Shown piece by piece: positions 11,599 to 32,090 of a DNA stretch of 64,000 nt. A model generated the notes under the pieces. That model did no database searches. It was not told the DNA's origin and saw nothing but the letters and a program-made list of their open reading frames with translations. The first letter of the stretch is position 1. Each line of letters starts with the position of its first letter. The DNA is from Escherichia coli. Its GTDB lineage: Bacteria > Pseudomonadota > Gammaproteobacteria > Enterobacterales > Enterobacteriaceae. The translations under genes were made by a program, and so were the position numbers. The DNA lies in assembly GCF_013315695.1 (NCBI RefSeq), contig NZ_CP054353.1; one strand, written 5' to 3'.

Positions 11599-11653
11599 GG
11601 TGATGCTGCCAACTTACTGATTTAGTGTATGATGGTGTTTTTGAGGTGCTCCA

Positions 11654-11929
11654 GTGGCTTCTGTTTCTATCAGCTGTCCCTCCTGTTCAGCTACTGACGG
11701 GGTGGTGCGTAACGGCAAAAGCACCGCCGGACATCAGCGCTATCTCTGCTCTCACTGCCGTAAAACATGGCAACTGCAGTTCACTTACACCGCTTCTCAA
11801 CCCGGTACGCACCAGAAAATCATTGATATGGCCATGAATGGCGTTGGATGCCGGGCAACAGCCCGCATTATGGGCGTTGGCCTCAACACGATTTTACGTC
11901 ACTTAAAAAACTCAGGCCGCAGTCGGTAA
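11654..11929 (+). CDS. insA: IS1 InsA, 91 aa
   Basis: ORF track protein [39 protein letters not shown]..., recognised as IS1 InsA. Confidence 0.95.
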
Positions 11930-12351
11930 CCTCGCGCATACAGCCGGGCAGTGACGTCATCGTCTGCGCGGAAATGGACGAACAGTGGGGCTATGTCGGG
12001 GCTAAATCGCGCCAGCGCTGGCTGTTTTACGCGTATGACAGGCTCCGGAAGACGGTTGTTGCGCACGTATTCGGTGAACGCACTATGGCGACGCTGGGGC
12101 GTCTTATGAGCCTGCTGTCACCCTTTGACGTGGTGATATGGATGACGGATGGCTGGCCGCTGTATGAATCCCGCCTGAAGGGAAAGCTGCACGTAATCAG
12201 CAAGCGATATACGCAGCGAATTGAGCGGCATAACCTGAATCTGAGGCAGCACCTGGCACGGCTGGGACGGAAGTCGCTGTCGTTCTCAAAATCGGTGGAG
12301 CTGCATGACAAAGTCATCGGGCATTATCTGAACATAAAACACTATCAATAA
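11848..12351 (+). CDS. insB: IS1 InsB reading frame, 167 aa; expressed as the InsAB' transposase by -1 frameshift from insA
   Basis: ORF track 11848..12351 overlapping the insA 3' end in the -1 frame. Confidence 0.9.
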
Positions 12352-12366
12352 GTTGGAGTCATTACC

Positions 12367-12677: not shown

Positions 12678-13970
12678 ATGGATATTCCCGTTAATGCAGC
12701 AAAGCCGGGGCGTCGGCGTTATCTGACGCTGGTGATGATCTTTATTACGGTGGTCATTTGTTATGTTGACCGCGCTAACCTGGCCGTGGCTTCCGCCCAT
12801 ATTCAGGAAGAGTTCGGTATTACCAAAGCGGAAATGGGCTATGTATTTTCGGCCTTCGCCTGGCTTTATACGCTATGTCAGATCCCCGGTGGTTGGTTTT
12901 TAGATCGCGTAGGTTCACGCGTGACTTATTTTATTGCGATATTTGGCTGGTCAGTGGCGACGTTATTCCAGGGCTTTGCCACGGGATTAATGTCATTAAT
13001 TGGTCTGCGCGCGATAACCGGTATTTTCGAAGCGCCCGCTTTCCCGACCAATAACCGGATGGTGACCAGTTGGTTCCCGGAACATGAACGTGCTTCTGCC
13101 GTTGGTTTTTATACGTCTGGTCAGTTTGTCGGTCTGGCGTTTCTGACTCCGCTGCTGATCTGGATTCAGGAGATGTTGAGCTGGCACTGGGTGTTCATCG
13201 TCACCGGTGGTATCGGCATTATCTGGTCGCTGATTTGGTTTAAGGTTTATCAGCCGCCGCGCCTGACTAAAGGCATCAGCAAAGCTGAACTGGATTACAT
13301 TCGTGATGGCGGCGGTCTGGTGGATGGCGATGCGCCGGTGAAAAAAGAGGCGCGTCAGCCGTTAACAGCCAAAGACTGGAAACTGGTGTTCCATCGTAAA
13401 CTGATCGGTGTCTATCTTGGGCAATTTGCGGTGGCTTCTACACTGTGGTTTTTCTTAACCTGGTTCCCGAACTATTTAACCCAGGAAAAAGGAATCACGG
13501 CGCTGAAAGCAGGCTTTATGACCACGGTGCCGTTCCTCGCGGCGTTTATTGGCGTCCTGCTCTCTGGCTGGGTCGCGGATCTGCTGGTACGTAAGGGCTT
13601 TTCACTGGGCTTTGCGCGTAAAACGCCGATTATCTGCGGCTTGCTGATCTCCACCTGCATTATGGGCGCTAACTACACTAACGATCCGATGATGATTATG
13701 TGCCTGATGGCGCTGGCATTCTTCGGCAACGGTTTTGCTTCGATTACCTGGTCGCTGGTTTCTTCTCTGGCACCGATGCGCCTGATTGGTTTAACCGGCG
13801 GCGTGTTTAACTTTGCCGGTGGTCTGGGCGGCATCACTGTTCCGCTGGTGGTGGGGTACCTGGCGCAGGGTTACGGTTTCGCACCTGCACTGGTTTATAT
13901 CTCCGCCGTTGCGTTGATTGGCGCGCTCTCTTACATCCTGCTGGTGGGCGATGTGAAGCGCGTTGGCTAA
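12678..13970 (+). CDS. dgoT: D-galactonate:H+ symporter DgoT (MFS), 430 aa
   Basis: ORF track 12633..13970; start placed at the ATG giving [22 protein letters not shown]. Confidence 0.9.
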
Positions 13971-15031
13971 TCTTTCAACTGTGGAATATGCGCCACACCA
14001 CTGCGCATAATCCACTTTCTTAAAGCTGGTGCGGTCAGGCATCGGCTTTTTACTATTTTGCCGAAGAGTTTTAAACGCAGTTTGCGGGTGGCGCGCCAGT
14101 AGGCGGCGTTGCTCTTCTCCGGCTGCTTCAGTAACACCGAACGCAGAATCTCTGCGCTATCCAGCGCATAGCTAATCCCCTCCAGCGAACTGGCGCTGAT
14201 AAATCCCGCCGCTTCACCAATCAGAAAGGCGTTGTCCTTACCGCAGACAAAATCCTGCCAGCGTGAGGGAAACAGCACGGTACATTTCTCGCTTTTCACC
14301 GCTTTACCAAACTGGAACTGAAAGGCGTTCATTTTCTCTTTCAGCGTCGTGAAACGCGTCTGACCGTCTTTCATGGGATAGGCACCGCCAAAGATAAAAT
14401 AACCGTCTTTGCTGATACTCCATGAGTAACAGTCAGTTATCGCATTATCAAAGATGCAGGAGTAGAACGGCACCGGATGTTTCTCTGCGAACCACTGCTG
14501 GATAGCGACATATTTACGAATTTGATGATCCGGGTAGAGATGTCGCCGCACCATCGAGTTTGCGCCATCGGCACCGACCAGATAGCGGGCAGTAATATGC
14601 TGCTCCCAACCGTCTGCACGAAAAATGACATGCCATTTATCATCCTCACGCCAGATTTTTCGGCACAGGCTGTCGTGGTAAACCTCAACGCTGGCGGGGA
14701 TCAGCGATTTCATCCACAAGTCGAAAGCATGGCGATTAATATTGATATAGCTTCGCTGGTAGTTACGCGTGAGCGATGCGGCGACGTCGACAGTTTTGAC
14801 GCTGAAAATCTGTGGATTGGCGATCACATCGACAGGAAGCGTCAGTCCATCGCGAATAAAAGATCGCTGCGCGTCCGGTGCCAGCAGACCGCCGCAGGGT
14901 TTGCTGAAACCTTCAGTACCACACTGGTGCTTTTTATCCAGCGCGATCACCTGCATTTTGCTGGCTAACGTTCGTGCCAACACCGACCCTGCCGGGCCGA
15001 GGCCAATAATCGCCACGTCGAAATGTTCCAT
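13967..15031 (-). CDS. cbrA: FAD-dependent oxidoreductase CbrA (colicin E2 tolerance), 354 aa
   Basis: ORF track 13967..15052; start at the ATG giving [16 protein letters not shown] (FAD-binding GxGxxG). Confidence 0.88.
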
Positions 15032-15095
15032 CTTTTCACTCACATTCATCACGATGGCGAAAGACTATTGTCTGAAAGTGAAGTCCTTGTGAAGT

Positions 15096-16346
15096 ATGAT
15101 GGCGGGACCCGTTTTGTATCAGGACCGCGCCATGAAACAGATAACCTTTGCTCCCCGTAATCACCTGCTCACCAATACCAATACCTGGACGCCCGACAGC
15201 CAGTGGCTGGTATTTGACGTGCGTCCTTCTGGCGCGTCGTTTACCGGCGAGACCATTGAGCGTGTGAATATCCATACCGGCGAGGTCGAGGTTATCTATC
15301 GCGCGTCACAGGGCGCGTACGTTGGCGTGGTGACCGTTCATCCGAAGTCAGAGAAATATGTTTTCATCCACGGCCCGGAAAATCCTGATGAAACATGGTA
15401 TTACGACTTTCATCATCGGCGTGGAGTGATTGTTGAAGGCGGCAAGGTGAGCAATCTCGATGCAATGGATATTACCGCGCCGTACACCCCAGGAGCACTG
15501 CGCGGCGGCAGCCATGTGCATGTCTTTAGCCCGAACGGTGAAAGGGTGAGCTTTACCTATAACGACCATGTAATGCATCAACTCGATTCGGCGCTGGATT
15601 TGCGAAACGTCGGCGTGGCTGCACCGTTTGGCCCGGTCAACGTACAAAAGCAGCATCCGCGTGAATACAGCGGTAGCCACTGGTGCGTGCTGGTGAGTAA
15701 AACCACGCCCACGCCGCAGCCTGGCAGCGATGAAATCAATCGTGCTTATGAAGAAGGATGGGTAGGAAATCACGCGCTGGCGTTTATTGGCGACACACTT
15801 TCGCCAAAGGGCGAGAAAGTGCCGGAGCTATTTATCGTTGAGTTACCGCAAGATGAAGCTGGCTGGAAAGCGGCAGGTGATGCGCCGTTAAGTGGAACGG
15901 AAACAACCCTGCCCGCGCCACCGCGCGGCGTCGTGCAGCGACGTTTAACCTTTACCCACCATCGGGCTTATCCGGGGTTAGTCAACGTCCCGCGCCACTG
16001 GGTGCGCTGTAATCCGCAGGGTACGCAAATCGCGTTTTTAATGCGTGATGATAACGGCATTGTGCAACTGTGGCTTATCTCGCCACAGGGCGGCGAGCCG
16101 CGCCAGTTAACCCATAACAAAACGGATATTCAGTCTGCATTTAACTGGCATCCGTCAGGAGAATGGTTGGGCTTTGTGCTGGATAATCGAATTGCTTGCG
16201 CCCATGCGCAAAGCGGCGAGGTTGAGTATTTAACCGAAAACCACGCCAATCCACCTTCTGCGGACGCCGTGGTCTTCTCGCCGGATGGTCAATGGCTGGC
16301 GTGGATGGAAGGCGGCCAGCTGTGGATCACCGAAACTGATCGCTAA
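15096..16346 (+). CDS. yidR: Conserved beta-propeller-like protein YidR, about 415 aa
   Basis: ORF track; two adjacent ATG codons at 15096 and 15099, exact start uncertain. Confidence 0.85.
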   Translation: MMAGPVLYQDRAMKQITFAPRNHLLTNTNTWTPDSQWLVFDVRPSGASFTGETIERVNIHTGEVEVIYRASQGAYVGVVTVHPKSEKYVFIHGPENPDETWYYDFHHRRGVIVEGGKVSNLDAMDITAPYTPGALRGGSHVHVFSPNGERVSFTYNDHVMHQLDSALDLRNVGVAAPFGPVNVQKQHPREYSGSHWCVLVSKTTPTPQPGSDEINRAYEEGWVGNHALAFIGDTLSPKGEKVPELFIVELPQDEAGWKAAGDAPLSGTETTLPAPPRGVVQRRLTFTHHRAYPGLVNVPRHWVRCNPQGTQIAFLMRDDNGIVQLWLISPQGGEPRQLTHNKTDIQSAFNWHPSGEWLGFVLDNRIACAHAQSGEVEYLTENHANPPSADAVVFSPDGQWLAWMEGGQLWITETDR

Positions 16347-16347
16347 A

Positions 16348-16680
16348 TCAGTTATCAGGCATTCTGGCCGGTGGAATAACCGCATTGGTGGCTTGTGCGT
16401 TGGCTTCGCTTTTTTCAACGCGCGAGCGCACTGAGCTATCTTTGCGGAACACATCCCACGGTAGCAATATTGTGTCCAGTACTGCGGTAAATGGCATGTC
16501 GAGTATCGCCAGCGATTTTGTGCCCCAGTTGGTTTCATCGTCGCCAATCATAGTTGCGCTGGCGCGGGTGCCAGGATACGTTCCTTCTTTCCCCCCGGTA
16601 TGGGACATCACGCTGGAGCATCCTCCGAGTAATGTCATTCCGCTGCATATCATGAACGCTAACAACACATTTCTTATCAT
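16348..16680 (-). CDS. yidQ: Predicted outer-membrane lipoprotein YidQ, 110 aa
   Basis: ORF track 16348..16755; start trimmed to the ATG giving MIRNVLLAFMICSGMTLLGGCSS (lipobox). Confidence 0.82.
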   Translation of the reverse strand: MIRNVLLAFMICSGMTLLGGCSSVMSHTGGKEGTYPGTRASATMIGDDETNWGTKSLAILDMPFTAVLDTILLPWDVFRKDSSVRSRVEKSEANAQATNAVIPPARMPDN

Positions 16681-16854
16681 AATAAATTCATCTGTTGATC
16701 GTGGGTGTTGGCCTGATGAGTTATAGCGATCCCTTGCTGAAAATAACATCATCATTACGTCGCACTGTGGCGGCTATCGCACTTTAACGTTTCGTGCTGC
16801 CCCCTCAGTCTATGCAATAGACCATAAACTGCAAAAAAAAGTCCGCTGATAAGG

Positions 16855-16883
16855 CTTGAAAAGTTCATTTCCAGACCCATTTT
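16855..16883 (+). promoter_or_regulatory. Sigma-32 heat-shock promoter of ibpAB
   Basis: CTTGAAA (-35) and CCCATTT (-10) with 13-bp spacing, about 100 bp upstream of ibpA. Confidence 0.75.
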
Positions 16884-16889
16884 TACATC

Positions 16890-16985
16890 GTAGCCGATGA
16901 GGACGCGCCTGATGGGTGTTCTGGCTACCTGACCTGTCCATTGTGGAAGGTCTTAGATTCTCGCTGATTTCAGGAGCTATTGATT
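16890..16985 (+). promoter_or_regulatory. ibpA 5' UTR, expected ROSE-type RNA thermometer
   Basis: Position between the sigma-32 promoter and the ibpA start; structure not folded here, assignment from established knowledge. Confidence 0.5.
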
Positions 16986-17399
16986 ATGCGTAACTTTGAT
17001 TTATCCCCGCTTTACCGTTCTGCTATTGGATTTGACCGTTTGTTTAACCACTTAGAAAACAACCAGAGCCAGAGTAATGGCGGCTACCCTCCGTATAACG
17101 TTGAACTGGTAGACGAAAACCATTACCGCATTGCTATCGCTGTGGCTGGTTTTGCTGAGAGCGAACTGGAAATTACCGCCCAGGATAATCTGCTGGTGGT
17201 GAAAGGTGCTCACGCCGACGAACAAAAAGAGCGCACCTATCTGTACCAGGGCATCGCTGAACGCAACTTTGAACGCAAATTCCAGTTAGCTGAGAACATT
17301 CATGTTCGTGGTGCTAACTTGGTGAATGGTCTGCTGTATATCGATCTCGAACGCGTGATTCCGGAAGCGAAAAAACCGCGCCGTATCGAAATCAACTAA
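16986..17399 (+). CDS. ibpA: Small heat-shock protein IbpA, 137 aa
   Basis: ORF track 16980..17399; N-terminus [20 protein letters not shown]. Confidence 0.96.
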
Positions 17400-17510
17400 T
17401 TCCCTAAGGCCGCCTGGCGCGGCCTGACATTTCCATGCTCGCCGTCAGGGAGCATATGCGAATCTTCGGATTTGCAGGTACTTACTCGCTTCTTAGAAGG
17501 AGAAATGACT

Positions 17511-17939
17511 ATGCGTAACTTCGATTTATCCCCACTGATGCGTCAATGGATCGGTTTTGACAAACTGGCCAACGCACTGCAAAACGCCGGTGAAAGCCAG
17601 AGCTTCCCGCCGTACAACATTGAAAAAAGCGACGATAACCACTACCGCATTACCCTTGCGCTGGCAGGTTTTCGTCAGGAAGATTTAGAGATTCAACTGG
17701 AAGGTACGCGCCTGAGCGTAAAAGGCACGCCGGAGCAGCCAAAAGAAGAGAAAAAATGGCTGCATCAAGGGCTTATGAATCAGCCATTTAGCCTGAGCTT
17801 TACGCTGGCTGAAAATATGGAAGTCTCTGGTGCAACCTTCGTAAACGGTTTACTGCATATTGATTTAATTCGTAATGAGCCTGAACCCATCGCAGCGCAG
17901 CGTATCGCTATCAGCGAACGTCCCGCGTTAAATAGCTAA
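17511..17939 (+). CDS. ibpB: Small heat-shock protein IbpB, 142 aa
   Basis: ORF track 17472..17939; start at the ATG giving [20 protein letters not shown]. Confidence 0.96.
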
Positions 17940-17954
17940 CTAGCTATTCTCTTT

Positions 17955-17983
17955 GCCCCGCCATTCTGGTGGGGCTTTTTTTG
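17955..17983 (+). terminator. Rho-independent terminator of ibpAB
   Basis: GCCCCGCC...GGTGGGGC stem followed by an 8-T run. Confidence 0.8.
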
Positions 17984-18134
17984 TCTTTCTTCTTCAACAA
18001 TGCGTTAAATTTCGCCTGTTTAAGATATTTCGGCACGTTCTTTCCCGTGATAATGTGCGCTATAAGGCAAATCTGCTTCACCGATTCAGCCATAATCCGT
18101 AGCAATTAAAATGTTATCTCAAGAGAAATGGACG

Positions 18135-19796
18135 ATGAGTGATATAGCATTAACGGTCAGTATTCTGGCTTTGGTGGCAGTCGTCGGTTTGTTTATCGGC
18201 AACGTCAAATTTCGCGGCATAGGATTAGGTATTGGCGGCGTGCTGTTTGGTGGGATCATCGTCGGCCATTTTGTTTCTCAGGCGGGGATGACATTAAGTA
18301 GCGATATGCTGCATGTTATTCAGGAATTTGGCCTGATCCTGTTCGTTTATACCATCGGGATTCAGGTAGGGCCGGGCTTCTTTGCCTCATTGCGCGTCTC
18401 CGGATTACGCCTCAACCTGTTTGCTGTTCTGATCGTCATCATCGGGGGTCTGGTTACCGCCATCCTGCATAAACTGTTTGATATTCCACTGCCGGTAGTG
18501 CTGGGGATTTTCTCCGGTGCGGTAACCAATACGCCAGCGCTGGGGGCAGGGCAGCAGATCTTGCGCGACCTGGGTACACCAATGGAAATGGTCGATCAGA
18601 TGGGGATGAGTTACGCGATGGCGTATCCATTCGGTATTTGCGGGATTTTGTTCACCATGTGGATGTTGCGGGTTATGTTCCGCGTCAATGTCGAGACAGA
18701 AGCCCAGCAGCACGAGTCTTCTCGCACCAATGGCGGCGCGCTGATCAGGACTATCAATATTCGCGTTGAGAACCCTAACCTGCATGATTTAGCCATTAAA
18801 GATGTACCGATTCTCAACGGCGACAAAATTATCTGCTCGCGTCTGAAACGCGAAGAAACCCTAAAAGTACCTTCGCCAGATACCATTATCCAACTGGGCG
18901 ATTTGCTGCATCTGGTGGGGCAGCCAGCGGATTTACATAATGCGCAACTGGTGATTGGTCAGGAGGTCGATACCTCGCTGTCCACGAAAGGCACTGATTT
19001 ACGCGTCGAGCGTGTGGTGGTCACCAATGAAAACGTGCTTGGTAAGCGTATTCGCGACCTGCACTTTAAAGAACGCTATGACGTTGTTATCTCGCGCCTG
19101 AACCGTGCCGGGGTCGAACTGGTCGCCAGTGGCGATATCAGCCTGCAGTTCGGCGATATCCTCAACCTGGTGGGGCGTCCGTCCGCAATTGATGCCGTTG
19201 CCAATGTGCTGGGGAATGCGCAGCAAAAACTGCAACAGGTTCAGATGTTGCCGGTGTTTATTGGTATCGGGCTTGGCGTATTGTTAGGTTCTATTCCCGT
19301 CTTTGTGCCGGGATTCCCGGCCGCGTTGAAACTGGGGCTGGCGGGCGGTCCGCTGATTATGGCGTTGATCCTCGGGCGTATCGGCAGTATCGGCAAGCTG
19401 TACTGGTTTATGCCGCCAAGTGCCAACCTCGCGCTGCGGGAGCTGGGGATCGTACTGTTCCTCTCGGTAGTGGGGCTGAAATCTGGTGGGGATTTTGTAA
19501 ATACCCTGGTCAATGGCGAAGGGCTAAGCTGGATTGGTTATGGTGCGCTGATCACCGCCGTTCCGCTGATTACTGTTGGCATTCTGGCGCGGATGTTAGC
19601 CAAAATGAATTACCTGACCATGTGCGGGATGCTGGCTGGCTCCATGACCGATCCACCGGCGCTGGCGTTTGCTAATAATCTTCATCCAACCAGCGGTGCG
19701 GCGGCGCTTTCTTACGCCACTGTCTATCCGTTGGTGATGTTCCTGCGCATTATCACCCCCCAATTACTGGCGGTGCTCTTCTGGAGTATCGGTTAA
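18135..19796 (+). CDS. yidE: Putative AAE-family transporter YidE with two TrkA-C domains, 553 aa
   Basis: ORF track 18111..19796; start at the ATG giving [20 protein letters not shown]. Confidence 0.9.
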
Positions 19797-20237
19797 CTCT
19801 TTTCCGGGTGGAGTCGCCGTAAATGGTACTCCACCTGGTATTCGCTGGCATTTCTGAACATTACTGAATAATTCAAAAACTCCCCGCTCTCGCTATATGA
19901 CAACGAGGTGATCCGCAGCAGTGGCGTGTGTTCCGCTACCTTCATTTGCCGCGCCAGCAGTCTATCGGCGAGCACCAGCGTCAGGCTTTCATAATTACCG
20001 CCAATCAGAATCCCGCACTCTTGTTCAATATATTCAAACTTCGACCCTTCCAGATGTTGCAGCGAAAGGTTACGGAACAGTTTTACCGGCATATAGCTGT
20101 CTTCCAGCATCAGCGGTTTCCCTTCCACAAAACGAACGCGACGGGAGAAGTAGATCTGCTCGTTGATTTGAATCCGTAACTGGCTGGCAATGGCCGGAGG
20201 CGCAGGCATGATTTCAAAAATCAGCACCTGGCTGGTG
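19793..20237 (-). pseudogene. yidP: 5'-truncated yidP (GntR-family regulator): only the C-terminal ~148 codons (effector/UTRA-type domain) remain
   Basis: Reading frame is open from the IS4 boundary at 20237 to the stop at 19793 with no ATG at its 5' end; the N-terminal HTH-encoding part is absent from the window. Confidence 0.8.
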
Positions 20238-20255
20238 TAATGCCGATCAGTTAAG
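20238..20255. repeat. IS4 left terminal inverted repeat
   Basis: TAATGCCGATCAGTTAAG matches the reverse complement of the right end in 16 of 18 positions. Confidence 0.85.
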
Positions 20256-20321
20256 GATCAGTTGACCGATCCAGTGGCTGTGTAAGAATCCGGAAACGCT
20301 CACTTGTTTCCGGATTTTTTT

Positions 20322-21650
20322 ATGCACATTGGACAGGCTCTTGATCTGGTATCCCGTTACGATTCTCTGCGTAACCCACTGACTTCTCTGGGGGATTACC
20401 TCGACCCCGAACTCATCTCTCGTTGCCTTGCCGAATCAGGTACTGTAACGCTACGCAAGCGCCGTCTTCCCCTCGAAATGATGGTCTGGTGTATTGTTGG
20501 CATGGCGCTTGAGCGTAAAGAACCTCTTCACCAGATTGTGAATCGCCTGGACATCATGCTGCCGGGCAATCGCCCCTTCGTTGCCCCCAGTGCCGTTATT
20601 CAGGCCCGCCAGCGCCTGGGAAGTGAGGCTGTCCGCCGCGTGTTCACGAAAACAGCGCAGCTCTGGCATAACGCCACGCCGCATCCGCACTGGTGCGGCC
20701 TGACCCTGCTGGCCATCGATGGTGTGTTCTGGCGCACACCGGATACACCAGAGAACGATGCAGCCTTCCCCCGCCAGACACATGCCGGGAACCCGGCGCT
20801 CTACCCGCAGGTCAAAATGGTCTGCCAGATGGAACTGACCAGCCATCTGCTGACGGCTGCAGCCTTCGGCACGATGAAGAACAGCGAAAATGAGCTTGCT
20901 GAGCAACTTATAGAACAAACCGGCGATAACACTCTGACGTTAATGGATAAAGGTTATTACTCACTGGGACTGTTAAATGCCTGGAGCCTGGCGGGAGAAC
21001 ACCGCCACTGGATGATACCTCTCAGAAAGGGAGCGCAATATGAAGAGATCAGAAAACTGGGTAAAGGCGATCATCTGGTGAAGCTGAAAACCAGCCCGCA
21101 GGCACGAAAAAAGTGGCCGGGACTGGGAAATGAAGTGACAGCCCGCCTGCTGACCGTGACGCGCAAAGGAAAAGTCTGCCATCTGCTGACGTCGATGACG
21201 GACGCCATGCGCTTCCCCGGAGGAGAAATGGCGGATCTGTACAGTCATCGCTGGGAAATCGAACTGGGATACAGGGAGATAAAACAGACGATGCAACTGA
21301 GCAGGCTGACGCTGAGAAGTAAAAAACCGGAGCTTGTGGAGCAAGAGCTGTGGGGTGTCTTACTGGCTTATAATCTGGTGAGATATCAGATGATTAAAAT
21401 GGCGGAACATCTGAAAGGTTACTGGCCGAATCAACTGAGTTTCTCAGAATCATGCGGAATGGTGATGAGAATGCTGATGACATTGCAGGGCGCTTCACCG
21501 GGACGTATACCGGAGCTGATGCGCGATCTTGCAAGTATGGGACAACTTGTGAAATTACCGACAAGAAGGGAAAGGGCCTTCCCGAGAGTGGTAAAGGAGA
21601 GGCCCTGGAAATACCCCACAGCCCCGAAAAAGAGCCAGTCAGTTGCTTAA
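20322..21650 (+). CDS. insG: IS4 transposase, 442 aa
   Basis: ORF track 20304..21650; start at the ATG giving [24 protein letters not shown], recognised as the IS4 transposase. Confidence 0.92.
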
Positions 21651-21663
21651 CTGACTGGCATTA
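21646..21663. repeat. IS4 right terminal inverted repeat
   Basis: Reverse complement TAATGCCAGTCAGTTAAG. Confidence 0.85.
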
Positions 21664-21808
21664 CTCAAAGGGGGGGTATTTTTCTTTGAGCCAGGTTAAT
21701 GTGGCCGCATTTAGGAGTACGATTTTGCCGTTAATCGTGCATACTGTGCGCTTTTTTGTGGGCCAAGGGACTAAGCACACATTTCATATTTCAACGAAAG
21801 ACTAGTCT

Positions 21809-23677
21809 ATGAGCACTGATAATAAGCAATCATTGCCCGCGATTACCCTCGCGGCGATTGGAGTTGTCTACGGCGATATTGGTACCAGCCCGTTATATAC
21901 ACTTCGTGAATGTTTGTCCGGCCAGTTTGGTTTTGGCGTTGAACGCGATGCCGTGTTTGGCTTTTTATCGCTGATCTTCTGGCTGCTAATCTTTGTGGTT
22001 TCCATTAAATATCTCACCTTCGTGATGCGGGCAGATAACGCCGGTGAAGGGGGGATCCTGACGTTGATGTCGCTTGCCGGGCGTAATACGTCGGCGCGAA
22101 CCACATCAATGCTGGTGATTATGGGGCTAATCGGCGGCAGCTTTTTCTATGGTGAAGTCGTCATAACACCCGCTATTTCGGTGATGTCAGCCATTGAAGG
22201 TCTGGAAATCGTCGCCCCGCAGCTGGATACCTGGATAGTTCCCCTCTCAATTATCGTTCTCACTTTATTATTTATGATTCAAAAACATGGCACGGCTATG
22301 GTCGGTAAGCTGTTTGCACCGATCATGCTGACCTGGTTTTTGATTCTGGCAGGGCTGGGGTTACGTAGCATTATTGCTAACCCGGAAGTGCTGCATGCAC
22401 TGAATCCGATGTGGGCGGTGCATTTCTTCCTTGAATACAAAACGGTTTCTTTTATTGCATTAGGGGCAGTGGTGCTGTCGATTACGGGGGTCGAGGCGCT
22501 GTATGCTGATATGGGGCACTTTGGTAAGTTCCCTATTCGTCTGGCGTGGTTCACCGTCGTATTGCCTTCCTTAACCCTTAATTACTTCGGCCAGGGAGCG
22601 CTGTTGTTAAAGAATCCGGAAGCGATTAAGAACCCGTTCTTCCTGTTGGCACCGGACTGGGCGCTGATCCCGCTGCTGATCATCGCCGCACTGGCGACGG
22701 TAATTGCCTCGCAGGCGGTTATCTCTGGCGTCTTCTCATTGACGCGTCAGGCGGTACGTCTGGGATATTTGTCGCCGATGCGCATTATTCACACCTCCGA
22801 AATGGAGTCAGGGCAAATCTATATTCCGTTTGTGAACTGGATGCTCTATGTCGCGGTCGTGATTGTGATTGTCAGCTTTGAGCACTCCAGCAACCTGGCG
22901 GCGGCGTACGGGATTGCGGTGACCGGAACCATGGTGCTGACGTCTATTCTCTCGACTACCGTGGCACGTCAGAACTGGCACTGGAATAAGTATTTTGTTG
23001 CGCTGATCCTGATTGCTTTCCTTTGTGTCGATATTCCATTGTTCACCGCTAACCTCGATAAACTGCTCTCCGGCGGCTGGTTGCCATTGAGCCTCGGTAC
23101 GGTGATGTTTATCGTGATGACCACCTGGAAGAGCGAACGTTTCCGTTTGCTGCGGCGGATGCATGAACATGGTAACTCTCTGGAGGCGATGATTGCTTCG
23201 CTGGAGAAATCACCGCCCGTTCGCGTGCCCGGGACCGCGGTGTATATGTCACGTGCAATCAACGTCATTCCCTTTGCGCTGATGCATAACCTTAAACATA
23301 ACAAGGTATTGCATGAGCGGGTGATTCTGTTAACTTTGCGCACCGAAGACGCGCCTTATGTCCATAACGTCCGTCGGGTACAGATTGAACAACTGTCGCC
23401 CACTTTCTGGCGCGTGGTGGCAAGTTATGGTTGGCGAGAAACGCCAAACGTGGAAGAAGTTTTCCACCGCTGCGGTCTGGAAGGATTAAGTTGCCGGATG
23501 ATGGAAACCTCCTTCTTTATGTCGCATGAGTCGTTGATCCTCGGCAAACGCCCGTGGTATTTGCGTCTGCGCGGCAAGCTGTACTTGCTGCTGCAACGTA
23601 ATGCGCTGCGTGCGCCGGATCAATTTGAAATCCCGCCAAACAGGGTTATCGAACTGGGTACTCAGGTCGAAATCTAA
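21809..23677 (+). CDS. kup: Low-affinity K+ uptake protein Kup (TrkD), 622 aa
   Basis: ORF track; only 145 bp of native upstream sequence lie between the IS4 right end and the start codon. Confidence 0.96.
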
Positions 23678-23812
23678 CGCCAGACGCCTCCTTTCTCCAT
23701 AAGGGGGCGTTTTTGTTTTCATGGTTAATCACCATGTAAAACGTTTCGAAGTTGATCACATTTCCGTAACGTCACGATGGTTTTCCCAACTCAGTCAGGA
23801 TTAAACTGCGGG

Positions 23813-23832
23813 TCAGCGAAACGTTTCGCTGA
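23813..23832 (+). promoter_or_regulatory. RbsR operator in the rbs promoter region
   Basis: Perfect 20-bp palindrome TCAGCGAAACGTTTCGCTGA 12 bp upstream of rbsD, typical LacI/GalR-family operator. Confidence 0.85.
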
Positions 23833-23843
23833 TGGAGAAAAAA

Positions 23844-24263
23844 ATGAAAAAAGGCACCGTTCTTAATTCTGATATTTCATCGGTGATCTCCCGTCTGGGA
23901 CATACCGATACGCTGGTGGTGTGTGATGCTGGTTTACCCATCCCCAAAAGTACAACGCGTATCGATATGGCATTAACCCAGGGGGTACCTTCTTTTATGC
24001 AGGTGCTGGGCGTCGTCACAAATGAAATGCAGGTCGAAGCTGCCATTATCGCGGAAGAGATCAAACAACATAATCCGCAACTCCACGAAACGTTGCTCAC
24101 TCACCTTGAGCAGCTGCAAAAACACCAGGGAAATACCATTGAAATTCGTTACACCACGCATGAACAATTCAAACAACAAACCGCAGAAAGTCAGGCGGTA
24201 ATTCGCAGCGGAGAATGTTCTCCGTATGCGAATATCATTCTCTGTGCTGGCGTGACGTTCTGA
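23844..24263 (+). CDS. rbsD: D-ribose pyranase RbsD, 139 aa
   Basis: ORF track 23832..24263; start at the ATG giving [20 protein letters not shown]. Confidence 0.93.
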
Positions 24264-24270
24264 GGCCGTC

Positions 24271-25776
24271 ATGGAAGCATTACTTCAGCTTAAAGGCATC
24301 GATAAAGCCTTCCCGGGCGTAAAAGCCCTCTCGGGCGCAGCGTTAAATGTCTATCCGGGCCGCGTGATGGCGCTGGTGGGCGAAAACGGCGCGGGTAAAT
24401 CCACCATGATGAAAGTGCTTACTGGTATCTATACTCGCGATGCCGGCACGCTTTTATGGCTGGGGAAAGAAACGACATTTACCGGGCCAAAGTCTTCCCA
24501 GGAAGCCGGGATTGGGATTATCCACCAGGAACTGAACCTGATCCCGCAGTTAACCATTGCCGAAAACATTTTCCTCGGTCGTGAGTTTGTTAATCGCTTT
24601 GGCAAAATTGACTGGAAAACCATGTATGCCGAAGCGGATAAATTGCTGGCTAAACTTAACCTGCGCTTTAAAAGCGACAAGCTGGTGGGCGATCTTTCCA
24701 TCGGTGACCAGCAAATGGTTGAAATCGCCAAAGTGCTGAGCTTTGAGTCGAAAGTCATCATTATGGATGAACCGACCGATGCGCTGACCGATACCGAAAC
24801 CGAATCCTTGTTCCGCGTCATCCGCGAGCTGAAATCGCAAGGCCGCGGTATTGTCTATATTTCCCACCGCATGAAAGAAATCTTCGAGATTTGCGATGAC
24901 GTTACCGTTTTTCGTGACGGGCAATTTATTGCTGAGCGTGAAGTAGCATCACTGACCGAAGATTCGCTGATTGAGATGATGGTGGGCCGCAAGCTGGAAG
25001 ATCAATATCCGCACCTGGACAAAGCGCCAGGAGATATTCGCCTGAAAGTCGATAATCTCTGCGGACCTGGCGTTAACGATGTCTCTTTTACTTTACGCAA
25101 AGGCGAAATTCTTGGCGTCTCTGGTTTGATGGGCGCAGGTCGTACCGAACTGATGAAAGTGCTCTACGGCGCACTGCCGCGCACCAGCGGTTACGTCACC
25201 CTGGATGGGCATGAAGTCGTTACCCGTTCACCGCAGGATGGCCTGGCAAACGGCATTGTGTATATCTCCGAAGACCGTAAACGTGACGGTTTAGTGCTGG
25301 GCATGTCAGTAAAAGAGAACATGTCGCTGACAGCGCTGCGCTACTTCAGCCGCGCTGGCGGCAGTTTGAAGCATGCCGATGAACAGCAGGCAGTAAGTGA
25401 TTTCATTCGTCTGTTTAATGTGAAAACGCCGTCAATGGAACAGGCAATTGGTCTGCTCTCCGGTGGCAATCAGCAAAAAGTGGCGATTGCCCGTGGTCTG
25501 ATGACACGCCCCAAAGTGTTGATCCTCGATGAGCCTACCCGTGGCGTAGATGTCGGCGCGAAAAAAGAGATCTATCAACTGATTAACCAGTTCAAAGCCG
25601 ATGGCTTGAGCATCATTCTGGTGTCATCGGAGATGCCAGAAGTATTAGGCATGAGCGATCGCATCATCGTCATGCATGAAGGGCATCTCAGCGGGGAATT
25701 TACTCGTGAGCAGGCCACCCAGGAAGTGTTAATGGCTGCCGCTGTGGGCAAGCTTAATCGCGTGAATCAGGAGTAA
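24271..25776 (+). CDS. rbsA: Ribose ABC transporter ATP-binding protein RbsA, 501 aa
   Basis: ORF track; two ABC ATPase domains (GENGAGKST and GLMGAGRTE Walker A motifs). Confidence 0.96.
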
Positions 25777-25780
25777 AAAA

Positions 25781-26746
25781 ATGACAACCCAGACTGTCTC
25801 TGGTCGCCGTTATTTCACGAAAGCGTGGCTGATGGAGCAGAAATCGCTTATCGCTCTGCTGGTGCTGATCGCGATTGTCTCGACGTTAAGCCCGAACTTT
25901 TTCACCATCAATAACTTATTCAATATTCTCCAGCAAACCTCGGTGAACGCCATTATGGCGGTCGGGATGACGCTGGTGATCCTGACGTCGGGCATCGACT
26001 TGTCGGTAGGTTCTCTATTGGCGCTGACCGGCGCAGTTGCTGCATCTATCGTTGGCATTGAAGTCAATGCGCTGGTGGCTGTCGCTGCCGCTCTCGCGTT
26101 AGGTGCCGCAATTGGTGCGGTAACCGGGGTGATTGTAGCGAAAGGTCGCGTCCAGGCCTTTATCGCTACGCTGGTTATGATGCTTTTACTGCGCGGCGTG
26201 ACCATGGTTTATACCAACGGTAGCCCAGTGAATACTGGCTTTACTGAGAACGCCGATCTGTTTGGCTGGTTTGGTATTGGTCGTCCGCTGGGCGTACCGA
26301 CGCCAGTCTGGATCATGGGAATTGTCTTCCTCGCGGCCTGGTACATGCTGCATCACACGCGTCTGGGGCGTTACATCTACGCGCTGGGCGGCAACGAAGC
26401 GGCAACGCGTCTTTCTGGTATCAACGTCAATAAAATCAAAATCATCGTCTATTCTCTTTGTGGTCTGCTGGCATCGCTGGCCGGGATCATTGAAGTGGCG
26501 CGTCTCTCCTCCGCACAACCCACGGCGGGGACTGGCTATGAGCTGGATGCTATTGCTGCGGTGGTTCTGGGCGGTACGAGTCTGGCGGGCGGAAAAGGTC
26601 GCATTGTTGGGACGTTGATCGGCGCATTAATTCTTGGCTTCCTTAATAATGGATTGAATTTGTTAGGTGTTTCCTCCTATTACCAGATGATCGTCAAAGC
26701 GGTGGTGATTTTGCTGGCGGTGCTGGTAGACAACAAAAAGCAGTAA
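25781..26746 (+). CDS. rbsC: Ribose ABC transporter permease RbsC, 321 aa
   Basis: ORF track; hydrophobic polytopic protein in operon position. Confidence 0.95.
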   Translation: MTTQTVSGRRYFTKAWLMEQKSLIALLVLIAIVSTLSPNFFTINNLFNILQQTSVNAIMAVGMTLVILTSGIDLSVGSLLALTGAVAASIVGIEVNALVAVAAALALGAAIGAVTGVIVAKGRVQAFIATLVMMLLLRGVTMVYTNGSPVNTGFTENADLFGWFGIGRPLGVPTPVWIMGIVFLAAWYMLHHTRLGRYIYALGGNEAATRLSGINVNKIKIIVYSLCGLLASLAGIIEVARLSSAQPTAGTGYELDAIAAVVLGGTSLAGGKGRIVGTLIGALILGFLNNGLNLLGVSSYYQMIVKAVVILLAVLVDNKKQ

Positions 26747-31999: not shown

Positions 32000-32090
32000 G
32001 CGCCACCACTGACACGGAACAACGGCAAACACGCCGCCGGGTCAGCGGGGTTCTCCTGAGAATTCCGGCAGAGAAAGCAAAAATAAATGC

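Follow-up and report, generated by a model that had tools for sequence, protein, structure and literature searches.

Probable two-step inactivation of the GntR-family gene yidP in Escherichia coli by IS4 insertion and an inversion of the origin region

RESULTS AND DISCUSSION

The yidP remnant and its neighbors

The window (the whole 64,000-nucleotide stretch of E. coli DNA analyzed here) carries the 3′ part of yidP on its minus strand, at positions 19793 to 20237. These positions form an uninterrupted reading frame of 147 amino acids (aa) and a stop codon, with one extra base upstream; the encoded protein begins TSQVLIFEIMPAPP, ends RRLHPEKS before the stop, and corresponds to residues 92 to 238 of YidP, numbered on the 238-aa protein that we rebuilt from the sister genome MSB1_4I. 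The last yidP base is 20237, and 20238 is the first base of an IS4 element. An earlier note on this DNA had described ~148 codons without a start codon, ending at the IS4 boundary. Our translation agrees: there are 147 sense codons plus the stop, and the frame, read upstream from the junction, runs into a stop seven codons inside IS4, so no fusion protein is possible. We classify the locus as a pseudogene fragment (codons 92 to 238 plus stop) from its translation, its Pfam content, and RefSeq annotation; an identical stretch of NZ_LR898874.1, the MSB1_4I record, is annotated by NCBI at 19793 to 20236 as a pseudogene, [quoted passage not shown]

Full-length YidP, as rebuilt, has a GntR winged helix-turn-helix (wHTH) at residues 3 to 64 and a UTRA domain at residues 87 to 224 (Pfam), a layout that it shares with HutC-subfamily GntR regulators such as PhnF, NagR/YvoA, TreR, and HutC. 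HutC-type regulators also give its best NCBIfam similarities, with all scores under the curated cutoffs, and its sequence matches among solved structures are YydK, YvoA, TreR, and PhnF. Unlike these regulators, the window has the UTRA part alone: the fragment matches UTRA (PF07702; E = 2.7e-28), with its residues 1 to 133 aligned to positions 7 to 140 of the 141-position profile, and has no match to the GntR wHTH (PF00392). The UTRA part of YidP is therefore nearly whole in the remnant, whereas the absence of the wHTH, in a frame that also lacks the start codon and translation signals of a complete open reading frame (ORF), makes the locus a gene remnant rather than a regulator. YidP is one of the uncharacterized GntR-family factors; our literature search found no functional study of yidP, and it is listed among uncharacterized transcription factors.

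Downstream, the intact gene yidE (18135 to 19796, plus strand; ORF list and annotation) converges on the remnant and shares 4 bp with its 3′ end. Elsewhere in the window, at 11599 to 12366, an IS1A copy interrupts dgoD, the galactonate dehydratase gene, so that D-galactonate catabolism is probably lost as well; for the identical sequence in MSB1_4I, the annotation gives an IS1 transposase with a dgoD pseudogene piece on each side. An intact 163-aa ORF lies between rep and ppiC (50364 to 50855, minus strand). The sister genome calls it a PemK/MazF-family toxin (449-bp coding sequence) and annotates no adjacent antitoxin; its K-12 counterpart, yifN, is presumably a pseudogene.

IS4 and its mismatched flanks

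The element next to the remnant occupies 20238 to 21663 (1426 bp, plus strand), as judged from its sequence, terminal repeats, and annotation. It opens with TAATGCCGATCAGTTAAGG and closes with CTTAACTGACTGGCATTA, and its 18-nucleotide terminal inverted repeats, TAATGCCGATCAGTTAAG and TAATGCCAGTCAGTTAAG, agree at 16 of 18 positions. A single ORF of 442 or 448 aa, starting at 20322 (ATG) or 20304 (TTG) and ending at 21650, is annotated as an "IS4-like element IS4 family transposase" (WP_000483766.1) and contains the Pfam domains Nterm_IS4 and DDE_Tnp_1. The element thus has what defines IS4: a length of ~1.4 kb, short imperfect terminal inverted repeats, and one DDE transposase gene.

The flanks are chimeric. 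To the left, positions 20225 to 20237 hold one copy of CACCTGGCTGGTG, the 13-bp target-site duplication of the yidP insertion; to the right, positions 21664 to 21675 hold one copy of CTCAAAGGGGGG, the 12-bp duplication of an IS4 in the ravA-kup spacer. Each is found on its one side only, so that the matching 11- to 13-bp duplication expected on both sides of an IS4 is missing in the window; in MSB1_4I it is present around each of the two parental copies. Such unlike duplications are a signature of recombination between copies and no argument against the identity of the element; the pairing of the yidP duplication with the kup duplication indicates that two IS4 copies recombined. Beyond the right flank lies kup (21809 to 23677, plus strand), an intact gene for a 622-aa potassium transporter, identified from its ORF and the sister-genome annotation. 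The 145 bp from IS4 to the kup start are unchanged from the parental arrangement. In related, uninverted genomes, kup and yidP are separated by the origin region.

Comparison with sister genomes

The arrangement became clear by comparison with NZ_LR898874.1, whose record starts at dnaA. Window positions 1 to 21663 match its positions 1 to 21663 with one single-nucleotide polymorphism (SNP), and window positions 20237 to 64000 match the reverse complement of its positions 5226758 to ~5182996, with seven mismatches and three indels; both sides of the window IS4 are thus colinear with MSB1_4I, and their relative order is inverted. MSB1_4I and isolate AF3 (NZ_OZ547117.1) carry a simple IS4 insertion with both yidP halves in place, in the order yidE, yidP 3′ part, IS4, yidP 5′ part, and then, divergently, genes for a PTS EIICB and a 6-phospho-alpha-glucosidase. 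In MSB1_4I, CACCTGGCTGGTG borders this IS4 on both sides as a 13-bp direct repeat. A second IS4, between kup and ravA and in the opposite orientation, has the 12-bp CTCAAAGGGGGG at both of its sides; this IS4-kup junction, the older ravA-kup insertion, is common to 36 complete genomes. The two MSB1_4I copies (20238 to 21663, plus strand, and 5225332 to 5226757, minus strand) are 100% identical to each other and also identical to the window IS4. The unrearranged relative thus has the pair of near-identical IS4 copies in opposite orientation that an inversion between copies requires.

Differences from MSB1_4I are few and partly clustered. Just upstream of the rrn 16S gene, four substitutions and three single-base indels fall within ~20 bp (32064 to 32084), and single differences lie in the 16S and 23S genes (32482 and 35677); the rrn-clustered differences suggest that rrn operons exchanged sequence by gene conversion or that the assembly is noisy here. 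Single-base differences in yidA (6823) and yifB (39089) correspond to MSB1_4I proteins with high, adjacent accessions (WP_201555561.1 and WP_201555559.1), which suggests that these private alleles, or errors, belong to MSB1_4I rather than to the window.

A two-step origin

We initially read the locus as an inversion relative to the K-12 gene order. This reading was dropped when the closest genome, MSB1_4I, proved to have a simple insertion, which led us to a model with two steps. IS4 would first have entered yidP at codons 92 to 95, duplicating 13 bp and leaving a 95-aa, wHTH-only ORF, closed by the TAA of the IS4 terminus, and a UTRA-coding remnant without a start. The yidP IS4 would then have recombined, presumably by homologous recombination, with the identical, inverted IS4 of the ravA-kup spacer. 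This second step would invert a ~71.6-kb segment with oriC and dnaA, leaving the 3′ half of yidP by kup and the 5′ half by ravA, ~72 kb away. We consider it very likely that yidP was inactivated in this way, by an IS4 split followed by an inversion, with loss of full-length YidP, a remnant that is most likely silent, and probably altered control of the divergent glv-like operon.

The stretch between the two IS4 copies, computed from the MSB1_4I coordinates, is 71,613 bp and holds ravA, viaA, asnA, oriC (between mioC and mnmG), the atp operon, dnaA, gyrB, and the genes that follow to yidE. According to the alignment to NZ_LR898874.1, window positions 1 to 20237 (dnaA through yidE and the yidP 3′ part) belong to it; its remainder, which extends to ravA and contains oriC, is beyond the window. 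By coordinates, oriC is ~5.3 kb from one end of the segment and ~66 kb from the other. The inversion therefore displaces the origin by ~61 kb with respect to the remaining chromosome, and because oriC lies within the inverted segment, the orientation of genes relative to replication is kept.

Both steps have well-documented counterparts: IS-split pseudogenes, and inversions between inverted IS copies, are known from E. coli, Shigella, and other bacteria. MSB1_4I and AF3 resemble IS-disrupted pseudogenes of E. coli and Shigella, with a complete IS in the coding sequence, a 13-bp duplication, and otherwise intact halves, and NCBI annotates the yidP pieces of these sister genomes as "incomplete" pseudogene pieces; unlike plain IS-split pseudogenes, the halves in the window genome are no longer adjacent, after a later rearrangement. 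Chromosomal inversions around the origin have also arisen elsewhere by homologous recombination between oppositely oriented repeats, between rrnD and rrnE in E. coli W3110 and, mediated by IS copies, in Shigella and Yersinia pestis. As in those cases, two identical inverted repeats bound the segment, the duplications are exchanged, and oriC is inside; unlike them, the segment described here is small (~71.6 kb) and not centered on oriC, and the yidP IS4 has also recombined with another partner in other isolates. A literature search on IS4 inversions around oriC returned only generic matches.

Arrangements in public assemblies

The hybrid yidP′-IS4-kup arrangement is in none of 5,426 RefSeq complete E. 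coli genomes and was found only in GenBank assemblies; because of its absence from RefSeq, the products of both yidP halves were looked up as exact proteins in a larger assembly collection. The 95-aa N-terminal product occurs in 1,431 index blocks and was seen on 755 contigs; the 138-aa C-terminal product occurs in 579 blocks. Truncation of yidP is thus not specific to the window strain: it marks a whole lineage that is widespread in public assemblies.

In GCA_964055605.1, both junctions of the inversion lie in one 5.18-Mb record, with their IS4 copies ~71.7 kb apart by coordinates. One locus (L028) reads rbs, kup, IS4, yidP 3′ part, yidE and is 100% identical to window positions 13793 to 26209 (12.4 kb). 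The other (L018) reads glv operon, yidP codons 1 to 95, IS4, ravA-viaA-asnA, and its IS4 is flanked by CTCAAAGGGGGG and CACCTGGCTGGTG, as the inversion predicts. GCA_964044265.1 (L025) has the reciprocal junction too, with the ravA-side site, IS4, and the yidP site. Exchanged duplications are therefore seen at both new junctions, the second one in assemblies other than the window's own genome, and by reference to these assemblies we infer that the window genome has the same reciprocal junction. The expectation of the earlier note that the 5′ part of yidP would be found there is borne out in the assemblies that share the window's arrangement (L018 and L025). Its claim that yidP has lost its DNA-binding N terminus holds for the window locus, where the wHTH-coding part is missing, but this part is displaced rather than lost, as the 95-aa wHTH-only ORF with its own start.

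We read 24 long contigs, 20 of which are accounted for here (10 shown and 10 similar): the simple insertion is present in ~13, the kup-type inversion in 4, and a corA/uvrD-type exchange in 3. In the last class, the flanks of the yidP IS4 are exchanged with those of an IS4 near corA/uvrD that has the 12-bp duplication CACCTTCTGCTG, giving a yidP 5′ part-IS4 junction that leads to uvrD and a junction that leads from corA through IS4 to the yidP 3′ part, ~146 kb apart in OZ039802.1 (L022 and L033; also L023, L026, and L034). Another locus (L036) shows yet another recombination partner of the yidP IS4. This lineage therefore has the origin region in at least three arrangements. Taken together, these classes indicate that yidP::IS4 is a resident marker of the lineage, which has recombined repeatedly with IS4 copies around the origin.

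Some yidP::IS4 assemblies (GCA_964044255.1, L024/L035; GCA_900448625.1, L017/L027) have broken neighboring genes, with the 6-phospho-alpha-glucosidase in pieces of 299 and 140 aa, PTS EIICB of 505 instead of 538 aa, and yidE in pieces of 183 and 383 aa; either the module has decayed further, or long reads have introduced indel errors. Short contigs (2 to 2.6 kb, short-read metagenome/Logan; L008 to L015) start in yidP′, cross an entire IS4, and continue into at least five different right flanks, among them the yidP 5′ part, sequence adjacent to a gene with a ribosomal L9 C-terminal domain, and terminator-like GC hairpins. They are probably repeat-induced chimeras; a target preference is hinted at by the resemblance of several of their IS4 sites to short palindromes or terminator hairpins. 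Contigs from a look-up of a 144-aa ORF were rejected as evidence on the arrangement because all are short and their IS4 right flanks disagree.

Alternative explanations for the arrangement

The repeat itself raises the question whether yidP′ was joined to kup in assembly through the wrong copy of IS4, the true genome having a simple insertion. The two IS4 copies are identical, a query including the IS4 start matches 18 places in MSB1_4I (hence about 17 IS4 copies), and the variety of right flanks joined to the yidP′-IS4 left junction in short-read metagenome/Logan contigs means that mis-joins at IS4 do occur; the lack of the hybrid among RefSeq complete genomes would fit as well. Long reads, however, easily span a 1.4-kb repeat, and an artefact would need two matching errors per assembly: the complementary junctions stand ~72 kb apart in a single record of GCA_964055605.1, with two further similar places, and GCA_964044265.1 has the reciprocal junction. 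Nor is the window a re-assembly of MSB1_4I, since the handful of SNPs between them marks it as a separate isolate. We regard an artefact as very improbable.

A real inversion could also have arisen in one step, if the ravA-kup IS4 transposed intramolecularly into yidP and produced the inversion and the second copy together; the simple-insertion genomes would then be later re-inversions. The flanks alone are compatible with both origins, because such an event predicts the same pattern as recombination of two copies, one old and one new duplication per IS4. What speaks against it is that most of the long contigs accounted for (~13 of 20) carry the simple insertion, and that the corA/uvrD rearrangement uses the same yidP IS4, as fits a resident yidP::IS4 with various partners. 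Moreover, IS4-family elements move by cut-and-paste, which yields no replicative inversion products. A one-step origin thus appears quite unlikely to us, and we retain the two-step model, insertion followed by recombination between copies.

Expression of the two yidP halves

The first possible starts within the remnant are GTG at 20227 (V95) and ATG at 20209 (M101). Neither has a Shine-Dalgarno-like run in the 30 bases before it. A consensus scan of 19700 to 21900 revealed no promoter-like site on the minus strand; minus-strand transcription entering IS4 from its right end would meet a terminator-like hairpin, which the same scan identified there. An Rfam scan of 19000 to 22500 gave no match. 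Judged from these features, the UTRA remnant is most likely silent, given the in-frame stop in IS4 and the lack of a Shine-Dalgarno sequence and of a promoter-like site. For the same reasons, the suggestion in the earlier note that an effector fragment might be expressed from the IS4 end is unlikely to be correct.

Such a fragment, if made, would be a free ligand-binding protein without DNA binding, in effect a ligand sponge. It could fold, considering that isolated effector domains of the family have been crystallized as chains of 143 to 173 residues (for example, 2fa1, 2ogg, 3l5z, and 3lhe); almost the whole UTRA profile is retained, and the fragment DNA is 100% identical to the nearest intact alleles, with no decay yet. 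Opposed to this are the stop in IS4, the two candidate starts that lack ribosome-binding sequences, the want of a minus-strand promoter-like site within or near the left end of IS4, and the hairpin that opposes transcription from the right. Furthermore, in a cell without full-length YidP there is nothing left that such a domain could modulate. We find the sponge extremely doubtful and keep to a silent remnant.

The N-terminal half, the 95-aa ORF of residues 1 to 95 whose stop is the TAA that starts the IS4 end, retains its native start and upstream region and is therefore the likelier of the two halves to be made. The GntR/HutC family dimerizes via UTRA; on such general grounds, a lone wHTH should bind DNA poorly and without response to ligand.

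Copy number and allele history of yidP

The rebuilt yidP query matched 4,383 of the 5,426 complete genomes, 4,275 of them with ≥80% of the gene in one place; the gene is absent from ~1,043 genomes (~19%). No second yidP locus, and no plasmid-borne one, was found among the 4,383 yidP-bearing genomes, where the query matched at most two places per genome; MSB1_4I and AF3, the two genomes examined in this respect, owe their two matches to the halves of a single IS4-split gene. An intact copy elsewhere, which would have contradicted the claims of the earlier note, thus finds no support in these 4,383 genomes. Judged by these single-copy counts, the genomes without the gene, and its loss in strain A36 (see below), yidP belongs to the accessory genes, is present once where it occurs, and is both dispensable and frequently lost.

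Compared with the intact gene of isolate AF14, the split yidP has a single changed base, which results in A45D in the wHTH (L005 21815, outside the window; L037; L038 to L041), at what we take to be an alanine conserved in the GntR-family wHTH. That A45D arose after inactivation was considered and rejected: D45 also occurs in intact alleles, on 17 short public contigs, and the substitution therefore predates the IS4 insertion.

The likely target of YidP

In every locus examined, yidP is divergent to the genes for PTS EIICB and the GH4 6-phospho-alpha-glucosidase. In strain A36, yidP and both of these genes are missing together, and yidL abuts yidE. One depositor's product name for YidP is "glv operon transcriptional regulator," and the yidP-glv divergent promoter spacer contains an 11-nucleotide inverted repeat, AAAACATCTTT-N5-AAAGATGTGTT (L005 22015 to 22041, outside the window), a candidate YidP operator. 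The divergent layout, joint loss, depositor name, and palindrome all point indirectly to this glv-like operon as the probable YidP target; a literature search on a glv/GntR link returned nothing relevant to E. coli YidP. The spacer is unaltered by the inversion itself. It is plausible that loss of YidP would de-repress the adjacent alpha-glucoside PTS operon, and the view of the earlier note that whatever YidP regulates should be deregulated is, in general terms, reasonable.

The lineage with yidP::IS4 is widespread and human-associated and was seen in three states (simple, kup-type, and corA-type). One could speculate that yidP::IS4 is adaptive and not a case of neutral decay, in that an intact alpha-glucoside operon is permanently switched on, and that recombination near the origin keeps recurring at the same IS4; on balance we think this unlikely. 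The corresponding operon in K-12 is, we assume, degenerate.

Significance

The events behind the window are of ordinary kinds, the splitting of a gene by an IS and then an inversion between inverted IS copies. Gene decay of this sort is common in E. coli and already annotated, and the yidP case has little importance beyond the description of the strain. It does illustrate that the missing half of a gene cut off at an IS may lie at a distant site, and that one IS4 insertion can both inactivate an uncharacterized regulator and seed inversions that move oriC by ~61 kb. If YidP represses the alpha-glucoside operon, natural yidP::IS4 strains would be ready-made mutants with which to define its ligand and regulon.
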